A DNA stretch of 64,000 nucleotides from an uncultured Alphaproteobacteria bacterium (GCA_966211335.1 CBIHNF010000001.1:730847-794846), one strand, 5' to 3'. Shown: positions 3,755 through 52,677, counted from the stretch's first letter. The notes: generated by a model from the sequence alone, not told the origin. A program made the numbers and translations.

Positions 3755-3820
3755 GGATAAAGGTACTCTTATCCGCAAAAAATCTCGGGGCAGCGGTCAA
3801 CGGTTCAGCAAAGGAAATAT

Positions 3821-4618: not shown

Positions 4619-4665
4619 GCTTTCCACCAAGACAAAAGAAGAGCCCGGTGCGACAGCACCGGGCT
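3836..4665 (+). repeat. direct repeat unit 2 (830 bp) of tandem pilin duplication
   Basis: See unit 1. Identity starts at the codons for QKG|F and ends in the terminator stem. Confidence 0.9.
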
Positions 4666-4671
4666 TTTTTT
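4640..4671. terminator. rho-independent terminator between convergent pilin genes
   Basis: agcccggtgc-GACA-gcaccgggct perfect stem followed by T7. An A-rich tract on the other side makes it usable in both directions. Confidence 0.8.
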
Positions 4672-4690
4672 ATAGACCGAAGAGTGTAAA

Positions 4691-5896: not shown

Positions 5897-5944
5897 AATA
5901 ATGGCTCTCCTGAAATCATACACATAGATGAAGAGAAGGCACGG

Positions 5945-10888: not shown

Positions 10889-10893
10889 GCGGA

Positions 10894-11739
10894 TTAATCC
10901 CTGAGCAATTCGTTGATGCCGGTTTTGGAGCGCGTCTGCGCATCGACGCGTTTCACGATGACGGCGCAGTAAAGCCCCGGGCCGGGGGTGCCGTCCGGCA
11001 ACGGTTTGCCGGGCGTGGTGCCGGCGACGACGACGGAATAGGCGGGCACGCGGCCCGTGAAAACCTCGCCTGTCGCGCGGTCGATGATTTTGGTGGAAGC
11101 GCCAAGGTAGACGCCCATGGACAGCACCGCGCCTTCTTCAATGATAACGCCTTCGGCTACTTCCGAGCGCGCACCGATAAAGCAGTTGTCTTCAATAATG
11201 ACGGGGTTCGCCTGCAGGGGTTCCAAAACGCCCCCAATGCCGACGCCGCCCGAGATATGGCAGTTCTTGCCAACTTGTGCGCAGGAGCCGATGGTGACCC
11301 AGGTGTCGACCATGGTGCCTTCGCCGACATAAGCGCCGACGTTGACGAAGGATGGCATCAGCACCGCTTTCGGGGCAATAAACGCAGAGGGGCGCACGAC
11401 AGCGCCCGGCACCGCGCGGTAGCCGCCGGCCTTGAAGGCAGCTTCATCCATGCCCTCGAACTTCGAGCCCATTTTGTCGTACCAGGTGGAGCCTGCAACG
11501 CCGCCCTTCACAGGCGCGTTATCGTTGAAGCGGAAAGAAAGGAGAATGGCTTTCTTCAGCCACTGGTGCGTGACCCAAGCACCGTCAATTTTTTCCGAGA
11601 CGCGCAGCGTGCCGGCGCCCAAGAGCGCCATGATATCCTCGACCGTCTTCTTGCCGATCAGCTTCATCTTGTCGGTCAGCTGTTCGCGGCCGTCCCAGAC
11701 GTTGTTGATGGCGTTTTCAAGATCGGCGTAGTCGGACAT
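10894..11739 (-). CDS. dapD: 2,3,4,5-tetrahydropyridine-2,6-dicarboxylate N-succinyltransferase
   Basis: 281 aa. Hexapeptide-repeat C-terminal half. Typical DapD length and dapE synteny. Confidence 0.9.
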
Positions 11740-11753
11740 GATATGGCGGCCTT

Positions 11754-12422
11754 TCAGGCAGGTTTTTGGATATTGGCGAGGAACCAGTCGGGCAGTTTTT
11801 CCGCCTTCTGGTGGACGTGCGGGTGGTTGAGGTCTTCCGGCGCGACGTTCTTGCCGTGGAACCAGACCGTCGACATGCCGAGCTCATGCGCAGGGCGCAG
11901 ATTGATTTCAAGGTCCTCGAACATGCAGGCCTTTGCCGGTTCCACGTTGTGGCGCTTCAAAAACGTGTGATAGGTGTCGATCTTCGGTTTCGGCCAGTAA
12001 GCGGCGTCTTCAATCGCGAAGATATCTTCGAAATGGTGGCGGATGCCAAGGTGCTGCGTCATTGCTTCCGCAAAGGCCTTTGGCGCATTGGTGAAAACGA
12101 AGCGGCGGCCGGGCAGGTGGGCGAGCGATTCTTGCGTCACCTTGCAGGGCGGCACGACGGAGATGTCGATGTCGTGCACATGCTCGAGAAAATGATAGGG
12201 GTCGATGCCGTGTTCGGTCATGAGGCCGCGCAGCGTCGTGCCATAGGTTTTGTAGTAGTGCTTGCGCAGGCGCCCTGCTTCTTCGCGCTCCACCTTCAGG
12301 TGGTTTTGCACGAAATCGGTCATGCGGTTGCCGACTTCGACGAAGACATGGCTCTCCGCGTCATAGAGCGTGTTGTCGAGGTCAAAGACCCAAGCGTTGG
12401 TGCGGGAAAGAAGGCCGGTCAT
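11754..12422 (-). CDS. HAD-superfamily hydrolase (pyrimidine 5'-nucleotidase-like)
   Basis: Motif I is [10 protein letters not shown]. Start set at ATG 12422, because the track extension would overlap recR (ends 12433). Confidence 0.75.
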
Positions 12423-13890: not shown

Positions 13891-15330
13891 TTAGGCCGGA
13901 GCTACCGCATTTTTGGCGGGTTTCGCTTCCTTCGGCACAATGGCGGCCGGCGTTTCTTTCGCAGCAGCGATTGTCACCGCTGGCAGCTTCAAACCGTCAT
14001 TCGCCTTGTCGGCGGTGCGCAGGAAGCCTTCGATCTCGGCGTATTTTTTCGGCTCTGACGGGGTTGTGTCGTCTTTGCCAAGGGAGGAGCGGATCATGCC
14101 GGCCGAGGTTTCATCGACGGCAATCGCGCCGCTCTTGATACCATCACGCAGGGCGGTGATGCCTTTTTGCAGTTCGGGGTCGCCTTTGGCAGCCTCGATC
14201 TTCTTGTCGAGGAAGCCTTCGAGACCTTCAAGCGCTTTCGGCGCTTCGGTCTTGGCGGTTTCAGCAGGCGGCGCGTCGGCAGTGGTTTCCTGCTTTGGCG
14301 CGTCCTGTTTCGGCGCTTCCGTCTCGGGTTTCTTGTCGGTCGCGGCGAATTTGCTGTTCGACAGGTCAATCGGGCCCTGCTCGGCGGCAGAGGCGCCAAC
14401 GACCAGCTGGTCAGCGGTCGCCGAACTCTTCTGCGCTTCAAACTGGGCGAGTTTTTCGTAAACGGCGCTACCTTCGGGCGGCGCAAAGTTTGCAACGCCA
14501 AGGCCCTGCTTTTTCGCTTCCAGCCACATCATTTCTTTTTGCGCATCGTTACCGTAGACGTTGACCGCTTTCCAGCCGCGCTGGCGGGCTGCCGCCATGA
14601 CGCCATGGGCGTCGACTTCGTCAAAATTCTTGGAGCGGTTCGGCATGCCGATGAATTCAGCGCCGCCGAGGTTGGCGTGCCATTCAATCGCGTGGTTGTT
14701 CTGCAGTTCGAAAACGAGGCCGCCTTTGTGCGGATAAACCTTGCCTTCCGGCCCCAGCGCACGCGCCAGTTCCGCGTCCAGCTGGAAGTCGGGATCCGGC
14801 CAGACTTCACGCATTTTTGCGAGGGAGTCGGGGTGCACAGCGAGGTTGGTCGCAAAGCGCGACTGCTGCAGCTGCTCGTTGTCGATCGGCGTATCGGCGG
14901 TCGGCGCGGTTTGCTGTTGCGGCTGCGCAGGCTTGTTTGCATTCGCTTCCGCTTCTTTTTTCTTGCGGATTTCCTCTTCCGTTTCGGCAACGGGGGCGGC
15001 GGGCGCATCGCCGTCTTTCTTTTCTGCTTTTTCTTCAGCCGGCGGCGCGGTGTTCAGCGGCGCATCGGCCTTTTTCTCTTCCACCGGCGCCGTCGCATTC
15101 GCGGCGGGCGGCGTCACGGGGTCGGCTTTCTTTTCTTCCGCGGTCGCGGTGGCGGTCGAGCCTTCGGCCGAGGGTGCGGTCGCCTTCAGGTCGACCGCAG
15201 GGGTGACTTCGTCGGCATTGCGGACGCCCTGAACCGGGTCTTCCTTCGCTGAGGTGAATTTCGTGTCGGGAGGGGTCACCGGTGCGTCATTTTTGGCGGT
15301 GTCGGCGGGTTGCTTCACATCATCAGCCAT
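13891..15330 (-). CDS. hypothetical protein, Ala/Pro/Glu/Lys-rich disordered arms around a folded core
   Basis: Longest of many overlapping ORFs. GC3-rich codons. GGGATGAGG upstream of the ATG. EEKKAD-type low-complexity repeats. Confidence 0.6.
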   Translation of the reverse strand: MADDVKQPADTAKNDAPVTPPDTKFTSAKEDPVQGVRNADEVTPAVDLKATAPSAEGSTATATAEEKKADPVTPPAANATAPVEEKKADAPLNTAPPAEEKAEKKDGDAPAAPVAETEEEIRKKKEAEANANKPAQPQQQTAPTADTPIDNEQLQQSRFATNLAVHPDSLAKMREVWPDPDFQLDAELARALGPEGKVYPHKGGLVFELQNNHAIEWHANLGGAEFIGMPNRSKNFDEVDAHGVMAAARQRGWKAVNVYGNDAQKEMMWLEAKKQGLGVANFAPPEGSAVYEKLAQFEAQKSSATADQLVVGASAAEQGPIDLSNSKFAATDKKPETEAPKQDAPKQETTADAPPAETAKTEAPKALEGLEGFLDKKIEAAKGDPELQKGITALRDGIKSGAIAVDETSAGMIRSSLGKDDTTPSEPKKYAEIEGFLRTADKANDGLKLPAVTIAAAKETPAAIVPKEAKPAKNAVAPA

Positions 15331-16311: not shown

Positions 16312-17142
16312 TTAATGGACGTCGTTCAGGGCGACGTTCTGCGCGGCGAATTTGTCGAGCAGGTCGGTCATCTGGCCCACCGAGCGGTCCGCCTTGTCTT
16401 TCGCGGTCGAAGCGATGGACACCTGAATCGGGAACTGGCGGATGAGCGTGGTGCCGACGACGCCGACGGTCGCGTATTTGGTGTATTCCATTTCGACGTT
16501 GGTGGAATAGCCGACCGAGACCAGCGAATCCGTGCGGTGCGCGCGCTCGTCAAAGTGATAGGCGCTGGGGTCCGCCTGCAGCGAGCGGGCGGTGATTTTA
16601 TCGTCCAGCTTCACATCGGCCTTCTTGCCGAACAGTTTGTACGACTTGACCATGTTGTCGTGGATGCTGTCGCGGTAGGCCGGCTGCTGCTTGTCGAGGT
16701 ATTCGGCGAGGGTCGCCTTGGTCCGCGGCTCCTTCGGGGTCAGCCAGCTGATGGTGCCCTGATGCATCAGCATCGCGGAGTTGGGGTCCTCACCGTTGTA
16801 GGACGGGCCCTGGTCTTCGCTCGAGGCCAGCTTCTGCAGCTTGCCGACTTCAAGGCAGTCCGCGAAGACGGCGAGCAGGATGCCGCCGCCGGAGGATTTG
16901 TTCTGCGCGCGCAGCTGCTTGATAAGCTGGCCTTCCAAGTATTGCGATTCATCGAGGAAGCACATGCCAAGCGGCGCTTCCAGCACGGTCATGCTCTGGC
17001 CGAAGGGGATGAACAGGGTGCGGCGCATCTCGTAGATGGGGTCTTGGTATTTCGCTTGCGCCGGCGCGGCGCTCAAAGCGGCCGCAAGGCAGGCGCCGAG
17101 GAGGATTTTTTTAAGACCGGAGACGTGCTTGGAATTTTTCAT
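16312..17142 (-). CDS. hypothetical secreted protein
   Basis: ATG 17142 gives MKNSKHVSGLKKILLGACLAAALSAAPAQA, a signal peptide. The track start at 17172 is a TTG overlapping the ftsK stop. Confidence 0.6.
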   Translation of the reverse strand: MKNSKHVSGLKKILLGACLAAALSAAPAQAKYQDPIYEMRRTLFIPFGQSMTVLEAPLGMCFLDESQYLEGQLIKQLRAQNKSSGGGILLAVFADCLEVGKLQKLASSEDQGPSYNGEDPNSAMLMHQGTISWLTPKEPRTKATLAEYLDKQQPAYRDSIHDNMVKSYKLFGKKADVKLDDKITARSLQADPSAYHFDERAHRTDSLVSVGYSTNVEMEYTKYATVGVVGTTLIRQFPIQVSIASTAKDKADRSVGQMTDLLDKFAAQNVALNDVH

Positions 17143-17168
17143 CGATGTACTTTCTTCGAGGTGCCGTT

Positions 17169-19610
17169 TCAAGTGCCGTAATTATCCACCAGAATTTCGC
17201 GCTTGCCCACATGGTTAGCGGTGCTGACGAGGCCTTCCTTCTCCATCCGCTCCACGATACGCGCGGCGCGGTTGTAGCCGATCTGCAGGTGGCGCTGGAT
17301 GAAGGAGGTGGAAATCTTCCGCTCCCTCAAGACAACCGCGACCGCCTGATCGTAAAGGTCGTCGCCGCTGCCTTCGCCGTCACCGCTGCCGCCGGGAAGG
17401 CCGAATCCGCCTTCTTCTTCGTCGCCTTCGGTGACCCCATCAATGTAATTCGGAACGCCCTGACCGCGCAAGAAGCTGACGATCTTCTGCACCTCATCGT
17501 CGCCGACAAAGGGCCCATGGACTCTGGTAATACGCCCGCCGGAGGCCATATACAGCATATCACCCTGTCCCAGCAGCTGTTCGGCACCGCCTTCCCCTAA
17601 TATGGTGCGGCTGTCGATCTTGGAGGTGACCTGGAAGGAGATGCGGGTCGGGAAGTTTGCCTTAATCACGCCCGTGATGACGTCAACGGACGGCCGCTGC
17701 GTCGCCATGATGAGGTGAATGCCGGCCGCCCGCGCCATCTGCGCCAGACGCTGGATCGCGTTTTCGACTTCCTTGCCGGCGACCAGCATGAGGTCAGCGA
17801 ATTCATCGACGACGATGACGATATAGGGCAGGTCGGTCAGCGGGATCGGCTGTTCTTCATACACGGGCTTGCCGGTGTCGGAATCAAAGCCGGTCTGGAT
17901 CTTGTGCATCAGCACGTCGCCGTTGGCCTTCGCCGTGCGCACGCGCTCGTTAAAGCCGTCGATGTTGCGAACGCCGAGCTTCGACATCGCGCGGTAACGG
18001 TCTTCCATCTCCCGCACGGCCCATTTGAGGGCGGTGACAGCCTTATGCGCTTCCGTCACGACGGGGGTGAGCAGATGCGGAATATCATCATAGACCGAAA
18101 GCTCCAGCATCTTCGGGTCGATCATGATGAAGCGGCACTGCTCCGGCGACAGTTTGTAGAGCAGCGACAAAATCATCGTGTTCATAGCGACCGATTTGCC
18201 CGAGCCCGTGGTCCCCGCGACGAGCAGGTGGGGCATTTTGGCAAGGTCGGCAATCACGGGCTCGCCTGCGATATTTTTGCCAAGCACCAGCGGCAGCTTC
18301 GGCGTCGCTTTCTCATAGTCGCGGGAGCCGAGGAGTTCTTTGAGGTAAATCGTCTCGCGCTTCGCGTTCGGCAGTTCAATGCCAATCGCGTTCTTGCCGG
18401 GGACGACGGCGATACGCGCCGAAATCGCTGACATCGAGCGGGCGATATCGTCTGACAGCCCGATGACGCGGGAGGTCTTGGTGCCGGGCGCGGGCTCCAT
18501 TTCATACAGCGTGACGATGGGGCCGGGGCTGACTTTGAGAATGTCACCCTGCACGCCGAAATCGCCCAAGGTGGTCTGCAGCATTTCGGCGTTCTTTTGC
18601 AGCGCCGATTCATCAAGGCGCACCAATTGCGCATGCGGGCGGTCCAGCAGCAGGTCGACATGCGGGAACTGCCATTCTTCATCGGCGGCGCGCAAATTCA
18701 GCTTTTTCTGCTTGTCTTCCTTTTTGGGCTCGGGCTTGGATTTTTCAAGGCGCGGCGTCACCACGGGCTTGCGGCGCGGCGCGGCGAGGGTTTCATCACC
18801 GGCGCTATCATTTACTTCTTCCGGTGCGGTGTCTTCATTCACGCTGAGGCGGATGCGGCGGGGGCGCGGTGCCGCCGCCTCTTCCTCCACCGGCTGACCG
18901 GTGTATTTCGCGTGCCAGGCGCGGAAGGTGGAAATGAAGAAGCCGGTTTTTTCCGCCGCGACGCGCGAGACGGCATGCGTCGTGCGAATGCCGGTGCCCC
19001 ATTCCGCAAGGCTGATGCCCAGCGACATGAGGTAGGAGATAGAGAACATCACCGCCGCCGAAATCGCAACGAACAGGAAAGCCATGGTGCCGAGCCAGCC
19101 CTGCAGATGGTTGCCGATGCCGGCGAAAATCAGCGCACCCGCGCTGCCGCCCATGTAGGAACCGATGCCGAGCGAATGCGGGGAAGGGATGCGCGCCAGG
19201 GCAATCGCGCCGAACAGCACCGCGAAAATCAGCGCCGGCAGGCGGAAGCCGAAGGAGGGCACGGGTTTGCGCTTAATAATGCGCCAGCCCCAGACGATGA
19301 AAGCCGTCGCCAGCAGGTAGGACGCAAAGCCGAGCGTCTGCAGCAGAATATCGGCGCTGTAAGCGCCCGTGCGGCCGAAAATATTATGCACGGTGTCGGA
19401 GGAGCCGGCCGTGTTGAAGGACGGGTCTTGCGCATTGTAAGTCGCAAGCGAGAGGAACAGCGCTGCGCCGAAAGCGGCAAAACCGGCGCCGCCCAAGTCT
19501 GTCAGGCGGTGGGCGATAAAGCTTTGCATGTAGGCGGGCAGCAATGGCTGCTTGGCGTGACGCGAACGCGAGTTCATTTTGCGCGTGCCGGCGCGTGACA
19601 GAATACCCAT
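17169..19610 (-). CDS. ftsK: DNA translocase FtsK
   Basis: 813 aa. N-terminal TM helices, Walker A GTTGSGKS, C-terminal gamma wHTH. GGAGG RBS. Confidence 0.95.
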   Translation of the reverse strand: MGILSRAGTRKMNSRSRHAKQPLLPAYMQSFIAHRLTDLGGAGFAAFGAALFLSLATYNAQDPSFNTAGSSDTVHNIFGRTGAYSADILLQTLGFASYLLATAFIVWGWRIIKRKPVPSFGFRLPALIFAVLFGAIALARIPSPHSLGIGSYMGGSAGALIFAGIGNHLQGWLGTMAFLFVAISAAVMFSISYLMSLGISLAEWGTGIRTTHAVSRVAAEKTGFFISTFRAWHAKYTGQPVEEEAAAPRPRRIRLSVNEDTAPEEVNDSAGDETLAAPRRKPVVTPRLEKSKPEPKKEDKQKKLNLRAADEEWQFPHVDLLLDRPHAQLVRLDESALQKNAEMLQTTLGDFGVQGDILKVSPGPIVTLYEMEPAPGTKTSRVIGLSDDIARSMSAISARIAVVPGKNAIGIELPNAKRETIYLKELLGSRDYEKATPKLPLVLGKNIAGEPVIADLAKMPHLLVAGTTGSGKSVAMNTMILSLLYKLSPEQCRFIMIDPKMLELSVYDDIPHLLTPVVTEAHKAVTALKWAVREMEDRYRAMSKLGVRNIDGFNERVRTAKANGDVLMHKIQTGFDSDTGKPVYEEQPIPLTDLPYIVIVVDEFADLMLVAGKEVENAIQRLAQMARAAGIHLIMATQRPSVDVITGVIKANFPTRISFQVTSKIDSRTILGEGGAEQLLGQGDMLYMASGGRITRVHGPFVGDDEVQKIVSFLRGQGVPNYIDGVTEGDEEEGGFGLPGGSGDGEGSGDDLYDQAVAVVLRERKISTSFIQRHLQIGYNRAARIVERMEKEGLVSTANHVGKREILVDNYGT

Positions 19611-25665: not shown

Positions 25666-27396
25666 TCAAGGCGATGGCGTCCGGCGGAGACGCGATGCGC
25701 GCGGCAGGGCGGGCAGTGCTTCGATGCCGAAGGTTTTTGCTGTCTCCGCATCGATGCCGCGCAGCTTTTCGGCGGACTCCAGGCGGAGGGTTTTCAAGGC
25801 ATCGGTTTCCGTCGGTACGGCACCCTGCGTTGCGAGGAAGTTCATCACTTCCGCCAGCGGCTTGAGGCCCGCGAAATCCGCCTTGAAGAAATTATAGCCT
25901 GCGGCGGATTGCAGCAAGGCTGTCGGCGCATCGGCGACCTCTTGCGTATAGGGCACGGCGTGCTCATCGTGCAGATAGCGCATGAAGTCTACCGCCTCTG
26001 CACCTGAAACGTTGCGTTCCATCGGAAATCCCCTACCGTAAAAAACCGGCGTCAGCAGCTTGATCATCAGCGAAGCATCGGGCAGCGCACCCGCCTCGAT
26101 CAGGATTTTCGCAAGGTCAAGGTTGCCGTTCTCGACCGCCATCTGCACGGGCGTGCCGGCGGGGCCTTTGGAGGTGAAATCATAACCATTGTCGATCAGG
26201 TAGTGCAGCATGGCGGGATAACCGTCTTCAGCGCCCATGGCAGCCGCACGTTGGCGTCGGCCGCTCGCGACAACCGCATGGACGAAGGAGCGGAGGTTAT
26301 TCCCCGCCGTTTGCGTTTTGTCGAGCCCTTGCGACTCCAGCCATTTAAAGGCGTCAAGATCGGCGCGGCAGGCGGCGTTGCCGCCGGCGCTATTATCGAA
26401 TTTTTTTGCGTTCACATCGGGTGCATAGGGGCGCAGGACTTTCAGCGTCTCCAGCGTCGGCCCCTGCGGGTCATGGTCGCCGGCATCGACAAAATGCGAG
26501 GCGTCGGGCCGTGCGCCCAGCTCAATCAGGCGGGGGATAAGGTCGTAAACGTTATGCAGCGATGCCTGACGCAGCGTCATATCGCTGTGGATTTTGTCGT
26601 TGTCTTTTGCCTGTGCAGCCACGGCTTCGAACAACTCTCGGCGCTGTTCGGGTGTAAAGGGCGCGGCGTTGTTTTTGTGGCCGATCTCTTCATGGCGCGA
26701 CATCAGCACCCAGTCGAGCGGCAGGAACTTGCCGGGATATTCATCGTAGACATGGGCGGGGTTCATGCCGCTGGTCACGAAGTCCAGCACCTTTTCAAAC
26801 GGTGCTGATTTGATGATCTCGAGGAAAACAGCCGGGCGGTAGTCGACGGTTTCAATCAACCTCTGCAGCACAGGTGCAGCCTGCGCGGCGGGGATGCGGA
26901 AAGATGAATCAAGGTGATTTGCCAGTTTTCCCTCGACGTCTGCCATGGTTGCGGCGGGGCCATTCTGTATCATGGCAAGGCTGATACCGCCGGCTCCGGA
27001 ATTTTCCTCCGCCTCGACGAAGTAGCCGGCGTCGGTCGCCGATACCTTGAAGTTCATCAGTTGCTTGCCGTCCTGCAGCAGCTGCACCTTCGCGCCCGTG
27101 ACGTTGAAGTCCCAGACATCGTCAGGAACATCTTCCATGATTTGCTCGGCGCTCAGCTTTAGCGGCACTTTCATTTTTTCCAGCGCGAAGCTGAGCTGGT
27201 AGACCTCGTTGACGAAGTTCGCCAGTAGATCTGTCTTTAGCGCTTTCGGCGTCATTCCCGCCCGCTCGGCGTCACGTTCTGGCAACGTGGGTGTAATGGG
27301 GTCGGCTTTCACGCCTTCCGCCAGCAATTCTTTGGCCGTATCCGCATCGGGAATACGCGCGGCAATTTTCTCGAACAACGCGGAGAAGACAGTCAT
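25666..27396 (-). CDS. ankyrin-repeat protein (576 aa)
   Basis: ANK-type repeats in the C-terminal half (e.g. TPVQMAVENGNLDLAKILIEAGALPD, YPAMLHYLIDNGYDF). Confidence 0.7.
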   Translation of the reverse strand: MTVFSALFEKIAARIPDADTAKELLAEGVKADPITPTLPERDAERAGMTPKALKTDLLANFVNEVYQLSFALEKMKVPLKLSAEQIMEDVPDDVWDFNVTGAKVQLLQDGKQLMNFKVSATDAGYFVEAEENSGAGGISLAMIQNGPAATMADVEGKLANHLDSSFRIPAAQAAPVLQRLIETVDYRPAVFLEIIKSAPFEKVLDFVTSGMNPAHVYDEYPGKFLPLDWVLMSRHEEIGHKNNAAPFTPEQRRELFEAVAAQAKDNDKIHSDMTLRQASLHNVYDLIPRLIELGARPDASHFVDAGDHDPQGPTLETLKVLRPYAPDVNAKKFDNSAGGNAACRADLDAFKWLESQGLDKTQTAGNNLRSFVHAVVASGRRQRAAAMGAEDGYPAMLHYLIDNGYDFTSKGPAGTPVQMAVENGNLDLAKILIEAGALPDASLMIKLLTPVFYGRGFPMERNVSGAEAVDFMRYLHDEHAVPYTQEVADAPTALLQSAAGYNFFKADFAGLKPLAEVMNFLATQGAVPTETDALKTLRLESAEKLRGIDAETAKTFGIEALPALPRASRLRRTPSP

Positions 27397-38217: not shown

Positions 38218-39861
38218 TCAGTCTTTGCGCTTGAAGCCCGGGAAGCGCTTCGGCTCTTCCAAGGGGCCAACGCAGGTCTGCGTTGTCTGGTAGTTGCCGC
38301 GGTCGCGCTTACCGTTACCGCCGACATAGCTTTCCGCCTTCGGCGCGCCGAAGGTCGTGATGAGATAGGCGTTGTCGCGATAATCGAACTTCGCGCCCAC
38401 ATCCGGTGTGCAGCCCGCAAAACAGGTCAGCAGGTTCTGGCTGGCGTTCAGCGATTTGATCGGCGCGGTGGGCAGGCCTTCGAGCGTCAAAAGTTTGTTG
38501 CCGGAAACGTCGATCGAGCCATTGACGATCACATCGCGGAGATCCGGCAGGCGCGAGAGGCCCATTTTCGACATATTGATATCGCCATCCACCGTGATCT
38601 GACCATCGCGGTCTTTTTTGAATTTGACGCCGAGCCATTTCAGCGCGCCTTCGGCATCCTGCGGGATGCGGGTGCGTTGTGTCAGCTCCTGATAGGATTC
38701 GCAATTGTCCGGCAGCTTGAACTTGCCGTATTTCTGGCCGTTCAGGTTCTCTTCCGCAAAGCGGTTCACGGCATCGACAAAGCCTGGGTGGTGCAGGCCG
38801 ATGGGGTTGAAAGTCATGTAAATCGTATCGCTCTTCGGACCGTCGTTATCCATGCGGTGATAGGGCTTGAGGTTGATGCGGCCGAGCGGGTTGTGGATAT
38901 CGGGGTCGTCTTCCCGCACCAGATAGGCGGCGATGACACCGAGGTCGATTTCAGCGACGCCATAGCGCACGGCGGTCGAGCTTTCGGCACGGCAGCTCTG
39001 CCAGCCGCGGGCGTAGGACGCTCTGGCCAGGTCTTCATAGCTGCGCGTCAATACCACGGTGAGTCCGCCGCTGTTGAGGCGGTAGGGGTCTTCCTGATAG
39101 GCCTGCAGCAGCGCCGGCTGGTCTTTCAACAGTTTGCCGATTTTAAGGGTGTTCTTGCGATTATCTGTCGCATAGCCGCCGGCATAGTCGGAAATTTTAT
39201 AGCCCTGTTCCGTCAGATATTTTTCAATATAGGGCAGCACGGGGGAAGAGCTGGAATCCGCGAGCTTAAAGTAGATGCGCTGGTTTTCATTCCAGCTGAA
39301 TTCCTGCGGCTTGTTTTCATTCGCGGGGGCTTCGGCATTTTCGGGCGTGGGCGGGCTCACGGCCTTGGTGCCGAACATATTGCGGAAGAAGGAAACAACC
39401 GGATGCACCGGTTTTTCAATGAAAGGCGCGACGGAGGCGCTGGATTTCGGGTTATCCCTGCGGCGACGCAATTCGCGTTGCAAATCCTGCTCCAGCTCGT
39501 CCAGCTTGTACATCATGGAACGGATATCTTGCTTGATTGCCGCTTCGCCTTGCGCAAATTTTTCTTTCAGTTCTTTACCGGTTTTATCGGTGCGCGTACG
39601 GGAAAGCGCGATGCAGTATTCGGTCGCCGCGGCACGCAACGTTTCGCTGGCGCCTTCCGGCAATGCCGCATCCACTTTAGCTTTGATCTGCTGCTGATGG
39701 CGTTCGTACATTCCCTTCACGGCATCCATCGATGCTTGTGTGAGCTCGCCATGGATAAAGCTGGCGGCCTTGTCAAAGGCGGCGCTGAGTGCGCCTTTGA
39801 CAAGCGTTTCATCACTCAACGGAGCAAAGGCGGCAGCCTGTTCCTGCGGGGCGAACTCCAT
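38218..39861 (-). CDS. hypothetical protein with central GWQSC-motif domain and C-terminal LRR-like repeats (547 aa)
   Basis: LSRLPDLRDVIVNGSIDVSGNKLLTLEGLP..IKSLNASQNLLT is LRR-like. The start overlaps the upstream stop (TAATG). Confidence 0.6.
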   Translation of the reverse strand: MEFAPQEQAAAFAPLSDETLVKGALSAAFDKAASFIHGELTQASMDAVKGMYERHQQQIKAKVDAALPEGASETLRAAATEYCIALSRTRTDKTGKELKEKFAQGEAAIKQDIRSMMYKLDELEQDLQRELRRRRDNPKSSASVAPFIEKPVHPVVSFFRNMFGTKAVSPPTPENAEAPANENKPQEFSWNENQRIYFKLADSSSSPVLPYIEKYLTEQGYKISDYAGGYATDNRKNTLKIGKLLKDQPALLQAYQEDPYRLNSGGLTVVLTRSYEDLARASYARGWQSCRAESSTAVRYGVAEIDLGVIAAYLVREDDPDIHNPLGRINLKPYHRMDNDGPKSDTIYMTFNPIGLHHPGFVDAVNRFAEENLNGQKYGKFKLPDNCESYQELTQRTRIPQDAEGALKWLGVKFKKDRDGQITVDGDINMSKMGLSRLPDLRDVIVNGSIDVSGNKLLTLEGLPTAPIKSLNASQNLLTCFAGCTPDVGAKFDYRDNAYLITTFGAPKAESYVGGNGKRDRGNYQTTQTCVGPLEEPKRFPGFKRKD

Positions 39862-40775: not shown

Positions 40776-40850
40776 TGGTGCCGACGGAGAGGATTGAACT
40801 CCCGACCTTCGGTTTACAAAACCGCTGCACTACCGCTGTGCTACGTCGGC
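40776..40850 (-). tRNA. tRNA-Thr: tRNA-Thr (anticodon TGT)
   Basis: 75-nt cloverleaf GCCGACG TA GCAC AGCGGTA GTGC A GCGGT-TTTGTAA-ACCGA AGGTC GGGAG TTCAATC CTCTC CGTCGGC A CCA. One G-A mismatch at the top of the anticodon stem. Confidence 0.85.
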
Positions 40851-41105
40851 ACTAATCTTGGGTGCAGAATACATAAATTTTCCGCGAAAATAACCTCTTT
40901 TTTGCATAGCGCTTGAATATTCAGCGCCCACGCCCGCGCCGTTTATCCATTCTCAATAATAATCATATAGCCTTGAAAGACGGGCGGTTGTTTTACGGCA
41001 TATATATTAATGTCGGGATTGAAACTCTGGCGGCAGGGGCAATATGTGTTAATATATCAGGATGATATTCCGATGATGCCGCTTTTCAGGGGAAAGTTTT
41101 AAAGC

Positions 41106-42287
41106 GTGTCGCAAGCCAAAAGTCCGCATGAAGATTTCATCATGACGTTCACCGTCTGCTTCATCGTGGGCGGTCTTGCCTGGGTCATCTGGCACTTCTT
41201 TCACATTCAGCTCACCTGGGCGCTGTCCCGCATCCGCATCGGCGAGCTGTATCTCGACTATTTCCTCTTCGGCGACAAGACGACCTCCGTCACTTCCGTG
41301 GGCCCTGAAACCGTTGGCGTCTGGCGCAATTACCTGCCCAAAATGGCCATCCCCGACATCAGCGTCGATGTGCTGAAACGCACGACCGTCGTCGCAGTGC
41401 AGCCGCTGCGCGTCGTCTTCCTCGCCTTCATGAGCGTCATGGTCATCGCCATTATTTTCCGCGGCCCCGGCACGCAGTACAAGCGCCGCATGGGGCTTGA
41501 AACGCTGCTGAAGGAACAGGCCAAATCCTTCCCCGCTATCCGCCCCTTCATCAAGTTCGATCCGCGCAAACTGCCCTTCCGCGCGCCCGGCCAGCCGGTG
41601 CCGGCGCAGCTGCCGCTGTTCTCCGAGCAGTTGTCGCCGGAGGAGTGGATGTCGTACCACGAAATCTCCATCGTTAACGGGCAGATCGATTATAACCGCG
41701 CCTACCAGGCCATGGCCGAGCAGCTCGGCCGCCGCTGGCAGGGGCCGGAAAAACTGCCGCTCTATGCCCAAGGCCTCTATGCCGTCTGCGCGCTGAAAAT
41801 GGTGCGCAAACGCAAAGAGAGCGTCGAGATGATGAACATGCTGTCCGATTCCTGGACCGCGGAAAAAGGCTTCCGCCCGACGGCGAAAGTGAAGTCGAAA
41901 ATCCGCGCCGTGCTGAAAAACCCGAAGCAGGGCGAGGCCTTGCGCAAGTTCGCGGATATGCACGCCTATGAAACCACCGCCCTTATGCGCTGCTTGCAGC
42001 GCGCAAGGGAGGAGGGCGGGGTTCTGGCTCCTGCAGAATTCATCTGGCTGCGCGGCGTCGACCGCACGCTGTGGTATCCGCTCAACAACCTTGGCCGCAA
42101 GTCGTACTGCGCCGAAGCCTCCGGCGCCATGGTGCATTACACTAACGAACTTATCGCCGGGCAGAAAATCCCGACGCCGCGCTTTGATGAATCTATCCGC
42201 GGCCTCGAAGGCTATATGAAAGGCCCGGCAGGGCGCGCGATACCGGAACTCGACAAATCGGCCGGCGGCCGTAAATACTTCAAGTAA
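41106..42287 (+). CDS. dotM: DotM/IcmP-like (IncI TrbA-like) type IVB coupling-complex protein
   Basis: GTG start with an AGGGGAAAG RBS. N-terminal TM helices. The C-terminal block HAYETTALMRCLQRAREEGGVLAPAEFIWLRGVDRTLWYPLNNLGR matches my recollection of the Legionella DotM conserved region. Sits upstream of the DotL-like gene. Confidence 0.65.
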   Translation: MSQAKSPHEDFIMTFTVCFIVGGLAWVIWHFFHIQLTWALSRIRIGELYLDYFLFGDKTTSVTSVGPETVGVWRNYLPKMAIPDISVDVLKRTTVVAVQPLRVVFLAFMSVMVIAIIFRGPGTQYKRRMGLETLLKEQAKSFPAIRPFIKFDPRKLPFRAPGQPVPAQLPLFSEQLSPEEWMSYHEISIVNGQIDYNRAYQAMAEQLGRRWQGPEKLPLYAQGLYAVCALKMVRKRKESVEMMNMLSDSWTAEKGFRPTAKVKSKIRAVLKNPKQGEALRKFADMHAYETTALMRCLQRAREEGGVLAPAEFIWLRGVDRTLWYPLNNLGRKSYCAEASGAMVHYTNELIAGQKIPTPRFDESIRGLEGYMKGPAGRAIPELDKSAGGRKYFK

Positions 42288-42299
42288 GGAGCTACGCTG

Positions 42300-42803
42300 A
42301 TGTTCGCCTTCACAGAGAAAGACGTCGACGCGAAAATCGTCAACAACGCGCTCGTCGTTTCCCTTCTCGGCACCGACCAGCCGCGCGTCTGGCGCGCGGA
42401 CATGACGGGCCTCAGCTCCGCCACGCTCGATGTGATGGAAGAAAAAGGCAAATATTCGGTCGTCCTGCGCCGCAACGGCGCGGCGCCTGAAAGCATCGTC
42501 ACCTTCAACGACAAGGACAGCGCCAGCTATGCCCTGCGCACCCTGTCAGACGCGATGCTGAAGGGCGAGGCGCGCGGCGTCATCCAGGGCGGCGGCGGCG
42601 TTTTCGGCACGCTGCTGCGCACGCTCGTCGTCGTCGGCATCGTGCTCGGACTTGGCAGCCTTGTCGTCAGCCACCTGTTCACGCCGCCGGCGACCGATGT
42701 GTCGACCTCCAGCCGCGTGCCCATTCCGGCGCTTGGCAAATCGTCGGGCTCGAAAGTTGAAAGCGGCAAGCCGGTGCCGGCAGACCAGCTGTTCGGCAAG
42801 TAA
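42300..42803 (+). CDS. hypothetical protein with C-terminal TM helix, between dotM-like and dotL-like genes
   Basis: AAGGAG RBS 8 nt upstream. TM helix VFGTLLRTLVVVGIVLGLGSLVV. No Cys and no recognisable domain. Confidence 0.6.
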   Translation: MFAFTEKDVDAKIVNNALVVSLLGTDQPRVWRADMTGLSSATLDVMEEKGKYSVVLRRNGAAPESIVTFNDKDSASYALRTLSDAMLKGEARGVIQGGGGVFGTLLRTLVVVGIVLGLGSLVVSHLFTPPATDVSTSSRVPIPALGKSSGSKVESGKPVPADQLFGK

Positions 42804-42828
42804 TTTTTTTTGAAGGGTTAAGCGTCAC

Positions 42829-45441
42829 GTGGCGTTAAAGGAGAAATATCAGATCAAAGGCGCGGACCTCCTCCGCGATGCGCGTCCCTGGACGACGCGC
42901 ATGACCGACGCCGCGCGCGACCCTTCCACCGCCGGCGTCGCTTTTGCCATGGCGGGTATCGGCATTTTCACCGACCCCATGGTGTCGAACTTCGCAGACC
43001 TTATCTTCTTCATCTTCTGCATCTATTTTTACTGGCTGATGTCCCGGCCGGTGAAGCTGCCTTTCAAGCTGCCGAAATCTGCCGGTATCAAAGACCCCAA
43101 CTACAAGCGCCCCGACGGCTCGCTCGGCATTGCCGACGGCATTCTTTATCTTGGCAACGACAGCGACACGCAGGAAGAGATCTGGTTCACCAACTCCGAC
43201 GCGCGGACGCACTGCCTCTACCTCGGCACGACGGGTTCGGGTAAAACCTTTGGTCTTAAGTCATACGCCGTCAACGCGCTCTGCTGGGCGTCGGGCTTCA
43301 TCTACATCGACGGTAAAGCGGATACCGATTTGTGGTCGACGCTCTCCGCCATGGCGCGCCGCTTCGGCCGTGACGACGATCTGCTCATCATGAACTACAT
43401 GACGGGTAACGCGACCGGCCGCGTGCCGTCCAACACCATGAACCCGTTCTCTTCCGGTTCGGCGTCGTACCTTACCAACATGCTCGTCTCGCTGATGCCG
43501 GATTCCGAAGGCGACAACGCGATGTGGAAAGACCGCGCCGTCGCGCTCGTCTCCGCCCTTATGCCCTGCCTTGTCTGGAAGCGCGAAAACCAGAACATGC
43601 CGCTCTCCATCGGCGTCATTCGTACTTATCTTACCTTCAAGGCGGTCATTAAACTGTCGCGCGACAGCGTCATTCCTGACCTGCTGCGCTCGCCCGTGCG
43701 CGGCTACCTGAACGAGCTGCCCGGCTATGTCGACCATGTCTTCGATGACGAGGGCAACGAAAAGCCGATGCCGCCCGATGCCGGCGCCGTTGATACTTCC
43801 GTCCCGCGCCAGCAGCACGGTTACCTGTCCATGCAGTTCACGCGCTCCATGCAGTCGCTGGGTGACGACTACGGCTTTATCTTCGACACGCAGGCGGCCG
43901 ACATCGACATGCTCGACGTGGTCCTCAACCGCCGCATCCTCATCGTCCTCATCCCCGCCCTTGAAAAATCGTCGGATGAAACGGCCAACCTTGGTAAAAT
44001 CATTTCGTCCACGCTGAAGGGGATGATGGGCGCGACGCTCGGCAACTCGGTCGAGGGCTCGACCGAGACGGCGATCGAGAACAAGCCGACGCGCTCCGAA
44101 ACCCCCTTCATCGCCATCTTCGACGAGGTCGGTTACTATACGGCGCAGGGTATGGCGGTCATGGCGGCGCAGGCCCGCTCGCTCGGCTTCTCCCTCGTCT
44201 TCGCGGGTCAGGATTTACCCGCCCTTGAAAAGCGCGTGAAGGAAGAAGCGCGTTCCATCACGGCGAACTGCAACATCAAATTGTTCGGCAAGCTCGAGGA
44301 TCCGACCCAGACGAAGGACTTTTTCGAGAAAACCGTTGGTACCGCGCTTGTCACCGAAGTCTCCGGCTTCCAGCGGGGCGGCCAGCAGGGCGGCGGCGGC
44401 AGGGGCTATACCGATTCCGCCAACGCCTCCGTCCAGTCGCGCGCACGCGCGTCCTATGACGGCCTTAAAGGTTTCAACGAAGGCCGCGCCGTCGCCGCCT
44501 TCGGCAAGAGCGTTGTTGAAATTCAAGTCTATAACTCCGACATCGGCCATGCGAAGGCGATGCGCGTCCACCGCTTCCTGCCCATCCCACCGCCGGCGGA
44601 AGAAGCGCTGGAATCCCTCCGCCTCGTCAACGATGTGCTGAAGCGCATCCGCAACCCGAAGTGGAGCGCGGAAGCGCTACAGTCCCCGCCGTCCGCCGAT
44701 ATCGAGGCGCTGGCGCAGGGCTTTGCCGCCGCGAAAAAGGGCGGCGCGAACCTGCTCGAATGCGGCATCAACGGCGTTGCCGCGGTTGCCGAAGCGCATA
44801 GCACCATCAAGCCGGAAGACGCTAATGCCGCCGACACGCCGGCTGGCGATTCCACCGTCCGCAAACAGCCCGCTGCCATGGCGGAGGCCGAAAAAGCCGC
44901 TGTTGCCGCCGTTGCGAAAGCGACGGGTAATGCAGGCCCGCTCAGCTGGACGGAAGTTATTGGCGGCGCTGCCGCGGCCGAAGCAACGCAGCTGCGCCGC
45001 GACCCCCCTGTCACGGAAGCGCCTGCGCAAAAACAACAGGCCGCCGCCGCAGCCGCTGCACCGGCACCGGTTACTTGGGAAGATGTCATCAGTTCCGGCG
45101 GCCGTCAGGCGAAGGAATCCGCGGCCTCCGCCGCTTCCGCCGCCCTGCCGCAGCCGATTTCCTGGATGGATGTTATCGGCGGCGCTGCCGCAACGCTCGG
45201 CCCCAATGCCGTGCAGGAAATGACGCTTGGCAGCCTCACGGGCATGCCCGACCTTGCCGGCGTCGGCCCCGCCGATGCGACACCGCCGTGGCAGGCAGCA
45301 GCGGAAACGCCGGCGGCGCCTGCGGAAAGCCCGCTGAAGGCGCCTGAAGACAATACCGTCAAGTCACCGCTCAGCTGGGCCGATGTTATCGGCGCGGCGA
45401 CACAAACGGCTGCCAAAGAAGGCGGCGAAGCTGCGGAATAA
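42829..45441 (+). CDS. dotL: DotL/IcmO-like (IncI TrbC-like) type IV coupling protein ATPase
   Basis: 870 aa. Two N-terminal TM helices. Walker A LGTTGSGKT. Walker B region FIAIFDEVGYY. Blocks LNRRILIVLIPALEKSSDE and AQARSLGFSLVFAGQDLPAL resemble IcmO as I recall it. GTG start. Confidence 0.8.
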   Translation: MALKEKYQIKGADLLRDARPWTTRMTDAARDPSTAGVAFAMAGIGIFTDPMVSNFADLIFFIFCIYFYWLMSRPVKLPFKLPKSAGIKDPNYKRPDGSLGIADGILYLGNDSDTQEEIWFTNSDARTHCLYLGTTGSGKTFGLKSYAVNALCWASGFIYIDGKADTDLWSTLSAMARRFGRDDDLLIMNYMTGNATGRVPSNTMNPFSSGSASYLTNMLVSLMPDSEGDNAMWKDRAVALVSALMPCLVWKRENQNMPLSIGVIRTYLTFKAVIKLSRDSVIPDLLRSPVRGYLNELPGYVDHVFDDEGNEKPMPPDAGAVDTSVPRQQHGYLSMQFTRSMQSLGDDYGFIFDTQAADIDMLDVVLNRRILIVLIPALEKSSDETANLGKIISSTLKGMMGATLGNSVEGSTETAIENKPTRSETPFIAIFDEVGYYTAQGMAVMAAQARSLGFSLVFAGQDLPALEKRVKEEARSITANCNIKLFGKLEDPTQTKDFFEKTVGTALVTEVSGFQRGGQQGGGGRGYTDSANASVQSRARASYDGLKGFNEGRAVAAFGKSVVEIQVYNSDIGHAKAMRVHRFLPIPPPAEEALESLRLVNDVLKRIRNPKWSAEALQSPPSADIEALAQGFAAAKKGGANLLECGINGVAAVAEAHSTIKPEDANAADTPAGDSTVRKQPAAMAEAEKAAVAAVAKATGNAGPLSWTEVIGGAAAAEATQLRRDPPVTEAPAQKQQAAAAAAAPAPVTWEDVISSGGRQAKESAASAASAALPQPISWMDVIGGAAATLGPNAVQEMTLGSLTGMPDLAGVGPADATPPWQAAAETPAAPAESPLKAPEDNTVKSPLSWADVIGAATQTAAKEGGEAAE

Positions 45442-45465
45442 TTTGCGGCATAAAGGAAGCGCATC

Positions 45466-45804
45466 ATGGAAATTTTCAAAAAGCTCGGCATTCTGTTTTT
45501 CGTTCCCGGCGTCGTCATGCTGGTATGGGATCTGGTCGAGCAGTTCTTCGTCCACAACCGCTTCATGATCCGCAGCTTCAAGGAATGGGGCAATTTCATT
45601 TCCGTGACAGGCTACAGCAAACTGCAGAACGGCATGCATGTCATCTTTCCGTCCGACATCTGCGCCAAAATCGGCGATTATCCCGCGCCACTCGTTTTCA
45701 TCGTGCCGGGTGTCGTTTTTTACCTGCTCTACCGCATCTTCTTCATGGTCTTCGGCGGCAAGAGCGGCGGCGACGGCGGCTTTGTCTATAAATCGCGCCA
45801 CTAA
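45466..45804 (+). CDS. small membrane protein (112 aa)
   Basis: AAAGGAAG RBS. Two hydrophobic helices. 24 nt after the dotL-like stop. Confidence 0.55.
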   Translation: MEIFKKLGILFFVPGVVMLVWDLVEQFFVHNRFMIRSFKEWGNFISVTGYSKLQNGMHVIFPSDICAKIGDYPAPLVFIVPGVVFYLLYRIFFMVFGGKSGGDGGFVYKSRH

Positions 45805-45894
45805 GCGACTGATTTTACTCCAGCAAATTTAATTGCCTTGCGGCTTTTGCCGCCGTGGCTAGTATTGCCTTCTTAAATCAACAAGGATGCAATC

Positions 45895-46614
45895 ATGCTC
45901 GGCGGTGCTTTCCGGCGCAAGAAGGACGATGACTGGCTCGTGCAGCTCGAGCGCAGCGATCCCAACCGCGCCCTAGTGCAATACGCCGGTGCCGGTAAAA
46001 CAGCGAAGGTCGAAGAATTATTGCAGCAGGGTACTGACCCTGATCTGCTGGTGCTGTTCGATATCACCGTCGATACCGTCGCCGATGCCGCGCTGAACGC
46101 CGCCGCCGAAAACGGCCATATCAAAACCGCCGAGGCCCTGCTGAAAGCGGGCGCGAACTTGAACATCAAGGTCGAGAACGATTATACACCCCTGCTCAGC
46201 GCCGCGCTGAACGGCAAGGCCGAGATGATCAGCTTCCTCGCCGGTAAAGGCGCAGACCTTGAAGCGCGGGATGATATGTACCAGCGCACCCCGCTGCAGC
46301 TCGCCTGCCGCATGGGGCATATCGCCGCCGTGCGCGCGCTGATTGCAGCAGGGGCCGACCGCACTTCGCGCGATGGCGACAATCTCCGCGCGCAGGATAT
46401 GATCTGCGATCAGGCAGGCTTAGAGCCGCAACAGAAGCTAAATGTCCACAAGACTATTCTTGAGCTGTTTTTTCAGGCCGAGCAGAACGACAAGCGCATC
46501 GCCGCCGAAAAAGCCGCCGCGCTAAAGGTGGAACAGGAGGCCTTGAAAAAAGCGCCCGTCCTGCAGCGCGGCATGAATCCGGTCCGCACCGTCCGCTTCA
46601 AAGGACCGCAGTAG
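45895..46614 (+). CDS. ankyrin-repeat protein (239 aa)
   Basis: Clear ANK repeats (NAAAENGHIKTAEALLKAGANLN, TPLLSAALNGKAEMISFLAGKGADL, TPLQLACRMGHIAAVRALIAAGAD). AAGGA RBS. Confidence 0.85.
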   Translation: MLGGAFRRKKDDDWLVQLERSDPNRALVQYAGAGKTAKVEELLQQGTDPDLLVLFDITVDTVADAALNAAAENGHIKTAEALLKAGANLNIKVENDYTPLLSAALNGKAEMISFLAGKGADLEARDDMYQRTPLQLACRMGHIAAVRALIAAGADRTSRDGDNLRAQDMICDQAGLEPQQKLNVHKTILELFFQAEQNDKRIAAEKAAALKVEQEALKKAPVLQRGMNPVRTVRFKGPQ

Positions 46615-52179: not shown

Positions 52180-52677
52180 TCAGAGCGCGAAGCTGCGCGG
52201 CAGCGGCTTGTCTTCCGGCTCCGGCAGGCCGGCGGCCTTGCGCAGCGTCGTCAGTTCCTTCTTCGCTTCCAGCAGCTGCTGGCGCAAAAGGTCGCATTCG
52301 TAATCCTTGCGCATGAAGCGCAGCTTCACGAGATAGTCATTCGCCTGTTCCGACGGCACGGCGGAGGCAAAATCAAAACCCTTGTCGACCAGCAGGCGGA
52401 ACATATCAACATTACCGGCATAGACGGTCGAGCGCAGGGAAGAATTGCTGATGGCGCGTGTGCCAGGTGCCGCCAGCAGCATTTCGGCGAGGCGCACCTG
52501 ATTTTTATCGACCGCGCGGGTGAGCGGGTCGTTGAGCGCTTCCGGCGGCGCGTCGATGTTCGACTTCAGCAGTTCCTGCAGCTGCGCGGTGTCGCCGTTT
52601 TTCACGGCGGCCATCAGGCTCCGGCGGTAGATGGTGACGGCATCATCGGTGCCGCCGAACAGGGTGCGCAGGCTCAT
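52180..52677 (-). CDS. ANK-like repeat protein (165 aa)
   Basis: LMAAVKNGDTAQLQELLKSNID, DPLTRAVDKNQVRLAEMLL and TVYAGNVDMFRLLVDKGFDF. Confidence 0.55.
   Translation of the reverse strand: MSLRTLFGGTDDAVTIYRRSLMAAVKNGDTAQLQELLKSNIDAPPEALNDPLTRAVDKNQVRLAEMLLAAPGTRAISNSSLRSTVYAGNVDMFRLLVDKGFDFASAVPSEQANDYLVKLRFMRKDYECDLLRQQLLEAKKELTTLRKAAGLPEPEDKPLPRSFAL

Follow-up and report, generated by a model that had tools for sequence, protein, structure and literature searches.

The locus described here lies at positions 40776-46614 of a 64,000-nt stretch of DNA from an uncultured Alphaproteobacteria bacterium (GCA_966211335.1, CBIHNF010000001.1:730847-794846; the whole stretch is called the window below). 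We read it, with a probability of roughly 0.85, as the operon for the coupling complex of a type IVB secretion system (T4BSS) of the Dot/Icm type, chromosomal and vertically inherited, in a Micavibrio-like alphaproteobacterium, with the other genes of the system located elsewhere. The operon includes dotM, dotL and, between the two, a gene for a small membrane protein that we call X; Y112 and, probably, an ankyrin gene follow downstream. The reading is carried by the identities of DotM and DotL, the conservation of the three genes among relatives, purifying selection, the location of a dotO cluster on the contig that also carries the cassette of a syntenic relative, the predicted fold of X and its relation to TrbB, and a motif repeated in the DotL tail. 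The placement of the host rests on the names of the related metagenome-assembled genomes (MAGs).

DotL, DotM and the distribution of the secretion genes

When the 870-aa protein was compared with PDB (phmmer), the sole match was IcmO (DotL) of 6sz9_A (1.2e-140, residues 6-598 vs. 8-602). The identity of this core to Legionella pneumophila DotL was 47% over 573 aligned positions (~46-47%). The best NCBIfam model was TrbC_conju (IncI-type; 1.8e-115), whereas SXT_TraD, TraD and VirD4-type models reached 1.7e-17 or weaker, and no DotL-specific model was present in the NCBIfam output. The original prediction, made from the window sequence alone, of a DotL/IcmO-like type IV coupling protein (T4CP) was therefore borne out; an FtsK-type placement was not found, and the true FtsK was encoded by a separate gene (17169-19610). 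Every motif that the prediction had quoted was found at a sensible position in the translated proteins: in the 870-aa DotL, the Walker A sequence LGTTGSGKT at aa 132 (GTTGSGKT, aa 133-140), the Walker B region IFDEVGYY at aa 430 (DE, aa 432-433), LNRRILIVLIPALEKS at aa 366 and AQARSLGFSLVFAGQDLPA at aa 447; and in the 393-aa protein, AREEGGVLAP...NNLGR at aa 300. A transmembrane (TM) helix of DotL was located at aa 52-70.

The module had also been called IncI-like. Membership of the TrbC family and the gene order trbA-trbB-trbC agreed with this description, but the T4CP itself was closer to DotL (46-47%) than to TrbC (25-32%). In a tblastn search of 72,556 plasmids, IncI and IncL/M TrbC proteins were 29-32% identical, and the best T4CP match was that of a Piscirickettsia plasmid (41.6%). 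In a neighbour-joining tree (652 columns), the Micavibrio-like T4CPs were monophyletic (100/100) and were placed closer to the DotL proteins of Legionella and Piscirickettsia than to enterobacterial TrbC, with the deep nodes unresolved. Judged by sequence similarity, the 870-aa protein belongs to the DotL/IcmO-TrbC family without being an equivalog of IncI TrbC. In a comparison of the window (44623-45441) with locus L049, the window DotL (870 aa) and the database protein P0001 (867 aa, from an ENA contig of 116,742 bp) differed by three residues, the likeliest site of which was the alanine-rich tail; the window thus belongs to another assembly or strain than this contig.

This tail (aa 599-870; 26% Ala and rich in Ala and Pro) could not be aligned to Legionella DotL past residue ~602, and a tail of the Legionella adaptor-binding type was not found. 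Instead, it contained four P-[LIV]-[ST]-W-x-[DE]-V-I motifs (aa 704-711, 747-754, 776-783 and 847-854, starting at nt 44938, 45067, 45154 and 45367). The core of the motif, W-x-[DE]-[VIL]-[IVL], was present in 2-4 copies in the tails of 108 of 120 DotL homologs. In the window and eight related loci the motif was confined to DotL tails, save one match in a short, probably spurious open reading frame (ORF) of locus L037. The Legionella DotL tail is the binding site of DotN, IcmS-IcmW and LvgA (PMC7251119).

The 393-aa protein, predicted to be DotM/IcmP-like, matched Pfam DotM_C (PF23127; 8.4e-49, 166.5 bits vs. a cutoff of 27), NCBIfam DotM_IcmP_IVB (NF033890; 2.6e-49) and, over its full length, L. 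pneumophila DotM of PDB 6sz9_B (5.9e-23), which confirmed the assignment. Two TM helices (aa 11-29 and 100-118) preceded the cytoplasmic DotM_C domain. The arginines that bind Glu-rich signals in Legionella DotM are R196/R197, R217 and R314/R315, of which R314 is the only one widely conserved (Meir et al., PMC5802825). In the alignment to 6sz9_B, the basic patch of the window protein kept R314, whereas R217 was replaced by K and R196/R197/R315 by D/Y/T; the sole retention of R314 agrees with the published remark on its conservation.

A scan of species-representative genomes resulted in 48 loci, 53-97% identical to the window within DotL residues 1-604, all of them from MAGs, several named Micavibrio sp. 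When the window proteins were used as tblastn queries, dotM-X-dotL was found to be syntenic, with intact ORFs, in about 45 related loci. In closer relatives the cassette, with or without Y112 (the gene 3′ of dotL in the window), was located between the same housekeeping genes, for example PhoH and an alpha/beta hydrolase, whereas distant members (53-62% full-length DotL identity) kept the three-gene cassette among different housekeeping neighbours. In comparisons with three relatives, in which dS was near saturation and the values are therefore rough, the ratio of nonsynonymous to synonymous substitution (dN/dS) was 0.10-0.16 for the core of DotL, 0.19-0.34 for its tail and 0.18-0.37 for DotM. 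The clade-wide synteny and these ratios indicate working genes under purifying selection. Two distant loci, L039 and L040 (DotL at 10001-11880), had dotL with no detectable dotM upstream, L040 having a tRNA-Leu there; we regard this layout as another rearrangement of the module.

Of the 33 loci scanned, 26, distant ones included, had a tRNA-Thr(UGU) gene directly upstream of dotM, in 25 cases on the opposite strand; the tRNA gene was absent where dotO abuts dotM. An island integration site at this tRNA was considered and rejected, because the tRNA-dotM adjacency is conserved clade-wide. At the locus, we noticed no direct repeat derived from the end of the tRNA. The tRNA is an ancient neighbour and not an integration scar.

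These observations bear on the reading that comes second, at long odds: that the locus belongs to an integrated conjugative element of mating-pair formation class MPF_I (IncI-like) beside tRNA-Thr, in which the T4CP serves DNA transfer. Such an element would account for the trbA-trbB-trbC order, the adjacent tRNA and the IncI-type TrbC model as best NCBIfam match, and an alphaproteobacterial MPF_I plasmid shows the same three-gene order. However, the adjacency of tRNA-Thr and dotM and the housekeeping flanks were kept across a deep clade, which fits vertical inheritance, the GC content was normal, and the T4CP resembled DotL much more than it did any plasmid TrbC. We surveyed the window by Pfam searches of 40 ORFs, covering most of its large ORFs, supplemented by precomputed Pfam results for a near-identical contig (genes at ~32.8-55.4 kb). 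Among the ORFs thus scanned in the 64 kb, we recognised no Dot/Icm protein besides DotM and DotL and neither a relaxase nor an integrase, so that the local isolation of the module noted in the original prediction held. In the flanks of the related loci, no relaxase, oriT or integrase was recognised. The one sentence on the subject in Needham et al. (2022, PMC9418006) reports relaxase-free type IV secretion systems (pT4SSi) found by TXSScan in seven marine Micavibrionales MAGs, which also weighs against this reading. We infer that the system exports proteins, not DNA.

Further parts of the machine were found in relatives of the window, the probes being proteins of the Piscirickettsia plasmid Dot/Icm cluster. 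DotO/IcmB was found in three related loci. In two of them (L041 and L043) dotO was directly upstream of the cassette (dotO-dotM-X-dotL), and in the third (L037) it was ~4 kb upstream, with a 4-kb insertion and a tRNA between dotO and dotM. A protein database search with DotO of L037 resulted in 120 close homologs, some of them named IcmB from Micavibrio sp. On the 1,349,295-bp contig JAQSDV010000004.1 (GCA_029945425.1), an icmB gene (product P0169) at ~0.54 Mb and a DotL locus (L004) at ~1.01 Mb were ~468 kb apart, and the synteny of L004 with the window extended along the full 21.8 kb of that locus. The genes 5′ of that for P0169 were, in order, two of the DotI/IcmL family, DotH/IcmK, DotG (TrbI), DotF/IcmG, small membrane paralogs and DotN/IcmJ (DotF/IcmG weak, 1.6e-5; a TraQ/IcmC-like small membrane protein, 2.1e-7; DotN, 6e-26). 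The icmL-to-icmB region of Legionella has the same gene order. The syntenic relative GCA_029945425.1 therefore holds DotO and the core components DotG, DotH, DotI, DotF and DotN in the same genome as dotM-X-dotL.

The same eight-gene cluster containing dotO was present on two further large contigs (817,858 bp and 621,054 bp), which match in length the longest contigs recorded for the DotL homologs P0040 and P0092; by this match, dotO and dotL would share a contig there too. On a 39.8-kb JGI contig (Ga0248672_100239, locus L063), dotO (5727-8855) was alone amid housekeeping genes. Scattered T4BSS genes seem to be typical of the clade. When Piscirickettsia DotA, DotB, DotC, DotD, IcmT, IcmW and DotN were compared by tblastn with the window and the Micavibrio-like loci, nothing beyond DotL, DotM and DotO was found. 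The L063 contig also carried a phage-type integrase and D5_N primase element (16544-18855) ~7.7 kb downstream of dotO, and a gene for a DsbD-type thiol-disulfide protein nearby.

The original prediction had offered two possibilities, a secretion system split over several loci and a stand-alone or remnant coupling module. The first is supported by the icmL-to-icmB cluster located far from the cassette in the syntenic genome, whereas synteny and purifying selection contradict the second. A decaying remnant, in which the T4BSS has been lost and DotM and DotL are left without a channel, non-functional or co-opted, would fit the absence of any other recognised Dot/Icm gene from the 64 kb and the report of no type IV secretion in the cultured Micavibrio strain ARL-13. 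It is nevertheless very improbable, slightly more so than a conjugative element, given the intact ORFs in about 45 loci, the strong purifying selection on the DotL core, the eight-gene dotO cluster on the same contig in the syntenic relative and the contiguity of dotO with the cassette in deep relatives.

Protein X and the proposed coupling complex

As had been predicted, X contained no cysteine (0 Cys) and one TM helix (aa ~101-127; a narrower estimate is 109-127), and it had no thioredoxin- or DsbC-like domain. The family showed a conserved N-terminal region of ~90 residues (aa ~9-95), the TM helix, a variable linker and a conserved C-terminus, the extreme end of which was nearly invariant (G-x-P-V-P-A-D-Q/E-L-F-G; PVPADQLFG in the window). 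The space between dotM and dotL was filled by an ORF in all 44 sequences with both genes (the window and 43 loci). X had no match in Pfam or NCBIfam, and a sequence search of PDB gave chance-level hits only. An exhaustive profile search resulted in 551 representative clusters; the 150 representatives listed were all short (81-209 aa), too short to leave room for a TrbB-type C-terminal domain.

The AlphaFold2 model of X, built from an 89-sequence alignment, had a mean predicted local distance difference test score (pLDDT) of 82, with values of 90-97 across the N-domain. It showed six strands, a short helix and a long C-terminal helix, followed by the TM helix. The top Foldseek matches in PDB were PTB, PH and FERM-F3 domains (probability up to 0.99; root-mean-square deviation ~4.5 Å, ~80 columns), and none of the Foldseek matches of X was a subunit of the Legionella coupling complex. 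With moderate confidence, the N-domain may be assigned a PH/PTB-like fold.

All MPF_I plasmids examined showed the order TrbA-TrbB-TrbC. In their TrbB proteins (316-384 aa), an N-terminal domain was followed by a single TM helix and then by a DsbC/thioredoxin part. When X was aligned by hhalign to the N-terminal regions of TrbB, the probability was 77% (E 2e-5, score 36.0, 73 columns), whereas 100 column-shuffled controls averaged 9.2 and never exceeded 14.4, and reversal of the alignment resulted in a score of 10.6. X is best read as the counterpart of TrbB without the thioredoxin domain; it is a remote homolog of the TrbB N-domain. The trbA-trbB-trbC parallel drawn in the original prediction thus survived as to order, and the middle protein is related to TrbB, of which only the thioredoxin part is missing. 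Because the thioredoxin domain of TrbB must be periplasmic and the N-domain is shared, the N-domain of X would be cytoplasmic and its C-terminal motif periplasmic. In the IncM plasmid pCTX-M3, trbA, trbB and trbC are each required for transfer, and trbB of R64 is needed for high transfer efficiency (PMC6112013); the requirement in IncM supports a functional role for the middle gene.

In a minority of loci (L018, L020, L024-26 and L031), the N-domain of X was replaced by a segment with two TM helices (YFLP..VA..R.H.N...GWT..GW), and a motif of the PVPADELLGK type was kept wherever the C-terminus was readable (Table 1). The retention of the motif in variants without the PH-like N-domain suggests that the C-terminal peptide is the indispensable part of X. 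Two other middle proteins were tried as relatives of X and rejected. The product of the 167-aa gene of Piscirickettsia was absent from the X-profile matches (E up to 10), and the protein is acidic and soluble; the 203-aa middle protein of a Komagataeibacter plasmid had a non-significant E of 0.34 against the X profile (five-sequence database).

In the mechanism that we propose, DotL would be the inner-membrane hexameric ATPase that receives the substrates, and DotM would be its membrane partner. X would be a third, lineage-typical subunit sharing a common ancestor with the N-terminal part of IncI/IncM TrbB; its PH/PTB-like domain would lie on the cytoplasmic side of the membrane, and its short tail, with the conserved terminal motif, would be in the periplasm. 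The W-motif repeats of the DotL tail might, as a speculation, be docking sites for an adaptor, possibly the PH/PTB-like domain of X, which we propose as their reader because short peptides are ligands of PTB domains. The remaining components (DotI/J, DotH, DotG, DotF, IcmC/D-like proteins, DotN, DotO and presumably others) would be encoded elsewhere on the chromosome. The ancestral order would have been dotO-dotM-X-dotL, and in the lineage of the window dotO would have been separated, with tRNA-Thr now upstream of dotM.

Several points weigh against this reading. The scores of both core proteins were below the equivalog cutoffs of their NCBIfam models (DotL, 387 bits vs. 800 for TrbC_conju; DotM, 168 bits vs. 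230 for NF033890). The presence of dotO and its companions in the organism of the window is deduced from a relative with 85% DotL-core identity and synteny. DotA, DotB, DotC, DotD and IcmT had no tblastn match in ~0.9 Mb of Micavibrio-like sequence, and IcmS and IcmW were not located in the Micavibrio-like sequence examined. According to the genome paper on M. aeruginosavorus ARL-13 (PMC3189940), neither type III nor type IV secretion is in evidence, and in view of that report the T4BSS may lack universality in the group. As for X, its structural matches were non-significant (best E 0.05-0.09), it evolved faster than the core genes (dN/dS 0.43-0.65), and position is what places it in the coupling complex.

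Gene layout and neighbours of the locus

The original prediction of five plus-strand genes adjoining tRNA-Thr was reproduced at the same coordinates by ORF calling, ARAGORN and Rfam (Table 1). The gaps between the five genes were 12, 25, 24 and 90 bp. For dotM, the gene caller preferred an alternative ATG start at 41142, which results in a protein of 381 aa. A scan of the plus strand for the sigma-70 consensus (40851-41105) showed no convincing site, and a plus-strand terminator scan between the five genes showed none that was convincing; overall, the promoter and terminator scans were uninformative. A single transcript for the five genes is likely, given the short gaps, no convincing terminator between the genes and the AT-rich region of 255 bp before dotM.

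Table 1. Features of the coupling-protein locus, with the two-TM variants of X (variant positions are those of the loci named)
Feature	Position	Strand	Basis or remark
tRNA-Thr(UGU)	40776-40850	minus	ARAGORN and Rfam; divergent, conserved neighbour of dotM
Intergenic AT-rich region, 255 bp; presumed operon promoter region	40851-41105	plus	Promoter presumed from position only
dotM/icmP (TrbA homolog), 393 aa	41106-42287	plus	Pfam, NCBIfam and PDB matches
X, 167 aa, single-pass membrane protein	42300-42803	plus	ORF, family alignments, AlphaFold2 model, hhalign
dotL/icmO (870 aa in total), membrane anchor and ATPase core, aa 1-598	42829-44622	plus	phmmer vs. PDB 6sz9_A
dotL C-terminal tail, aa 599-870	44623-45441	plus	Ala/Pro-rich, four W-motifs
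Y112, 112 aa, two TM helices (aa ~3-25, 77-95)	45466-45804	plus	24 bp 3′ of dotL
Ankyrin-repeat protein, 239 aa, last co-directional gene	45895-46614	plus	Pfam Ank_2, 1.4e-20
Two-TM variant of X	L018 3878-4258		
Two-TM variant of X	L024 5911-6336		
Two-TM variant of X	L025 2447-2866		
Two-TM variant of X	L026 9554-9976		
Two-TM variant of X	L031 9569-9982		

Y112 had no Pfam or NCBIfam match. It was directly 3′ of dotL in 21 related loci and is a probable lineage-restricted member of the operon; the ankyrin gene followed Y112 in 10 related loci. The remainder of the window was ordinary chromosome, with genes for FtsK, LolA, DapD, DapE, Kup, a PheA-type dehydratase, KdsB, PhoH, a Cu/Zn-superoxide dismutase, ribonucleotide reductase and pyruvate kinase, in addition to pilin-like and ankyrin proteins. 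Rfam recognised two tRNAs in the window and nothing else, and the GC content across the locus was unremarkable, not deviant. A 479-aa protein with a large polyvalent protein-associated domain 7 (LPD7; 13891-15330, minus strand) was encoded amid housekeeping genes; the usual context of LPD7 is that of polyvalent proteins of mobile elements. A 547-aa protein (38218-39861, minus strand) had no Pfam or NCBIfam match, and its C-terminus was leucine-rich-repeat-like by eye. Its gene was present in three close relatives only (L002, L013 and L044) and is thus a variable gene adjoining a conserved cassette.

A cluster of pilin-like (N_methyl) genes was located at 2829-9588, 33-38 kb upstream of the coupling module. 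The original prediction had suggested, as speculation, a link of this cluster to the module through a thin pilus of the IncI type, and the coupling module could in principle feed such an envelope machine, for example a type IV pilus or pilin-like system. The presence of N_methyl pilin-like proteins and a lectin-domain pilin, and the pairing of a T4BSS with a thin pilus in IncI systems, would suit this reading, which we dismiss as the least probable of all, since no IncI pilN/Q/R/S-type assembly protein was found among the four pilin-like and the neighbouring ORFs scanned, the relatives examined showed no synteny of the pilin locus with the cassette, and a cognate Dot/Icm core cluster exists in relatives.

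Two of the pilin-like genes (2829-3629 and 3821-4618, plus strand) encoded proteins that were 100% identical over 260 aa. This tandem duplication was perfect, with a period of 989 bp, and the repeat tool confirmed 300 nt at 100%, 300 nt being its reporting length; either it arose very recently or it is an artefact of assembly. Two further pilin-like proteins were encoded at 5945-9588 (minus strand). One of them, of 825 aa, had a SUEL-type galactose/rhamnose-binding lectin domain and could be a pilus-tip adhesin.

Three or four ankyrin-repeat proteins were encoded in the 64 kb, including those at 25666-27396 and 52180-52677 (both minus strand). Ankyrin proteins also flanked the dotO cluster in three genomes (L056 13082-14098, L057 14123-15115 and L064 21493-23015), and DUF6782 proteins were conserved just 3′ of dotO. 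Because ankyrin proteins adjoin the dotM-X-dotL cassette and, in three genomes, the dotO cluster, we infer that they are candidate substrates; ankyrin and DUF6782 proteins alike could be substrates or accessory factors. Ankyrin proteins can also serve self-protection in predators (PMC4686830), so that the target may be either a prey bacterium or a eukaryote.

Significance and comparison with known systems

An effector-translocating Dot/Icm system is usually seen as a hallmark of the Legionellales (PMC8896642) and of intracellular life in eukaryotes; here, such a system is well conserved in a large alphaproteobacterial clade. The kind of system is known, being mentioned once for the Micavibrionales, and we found no paper in the literature searched that pairs Micavibrionales with DotL, T4BSS or related terms; the composition of the coupling complex and the scattering of the genes are new. 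T4BSS genes can be so scattered that they may escape locus-based annotation such as that of the 2011 genome paper. A shared third subunit, absent from Legionella, ties the conjugative trbA-trbB-trbC genes to the Dot/Icm coupling complex, and the locus points to a candidate mechanism by which proteins could be delivered into prey or hosts.

The Micavibrio group is known for epibiotic predation on bacteria. A tentative extension of the coupling-complex reading, which we hold to be possible but rather unlikely, is that Micavibrio-like bacteria use the scattered T4BSS for contact-dependent injection into prey or protists, and that X reads PLSWxDVI-type peptides of the DotL tail or of substrates, replacing IcmS, IcmW and LvgA.

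The relaxase-free systems of the seven Micavibrionales MAGs are of the same kind and from the same bacterial order as the system described here; they include icmB and more than six accessory genes, which agrees with the cluster found in the relatives. The published account (PMC9418006) is a bare count and does not describe gene organisation, a coupling module, X or the DotL tail.

The Legionella coupling complex consists of DotL, DotM and DotN with IcmS, IcmW, LvgA, DotY and DotZ (PDB 6SZ9 and 7OVB). The DotL core and the full-length DotM of the window align to their Legionella counterparts, dotM is likewise upstream of dotL, R314 of DotM is conserved, and relatives of the window have the genes for both DotN and DotO within a separate cluster of the icmL-to-icmB type, as in Legionella. 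In contrast to Legionella, an extra gene (X) separates dotM from dotL, the tail of DotL cannot be aligned and has repeated W-motifs, the Glu-binding arginines of DotM are mostly replaced, no IcmS, IcmW or LvgA homolog was seen in the loci examined, and the host is an alphaproteobacterium from a group known for bacterial predators.

The TrbA-TrbB-TrbC genes of IncI1 (R64-type) and IncL/M (pCTX-M3-type) plasmids share gene order and orientation with the locus; TrbA corresponds to DotM, TrbC corresponds to DotL, and the N-domain and TM helix of X match TrbB. The T4CP, however, is only 25-32% identical, and X is without the periplasmic DsbC/thioredoxin domain and without any cysteine and has a C-terminal motif of its own. 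Unlike in the plasmids, the locus has no relaxase (nikB) or oriT-type neighbours and is chromosomal and vertically inherited.

The plasmid Dot/Icm system of Piscirickettsia salmonis (NZ_CP039048.1) has the closest plasmid T4CP (41.6%) and also has a 167-aa gene (h167) between dotL and dotM. Its order is reversed (dotL-h167-dotM), the product of h167 is a soluble acidic protein, and all of its T4BSS genes are in one contiguous cluster.

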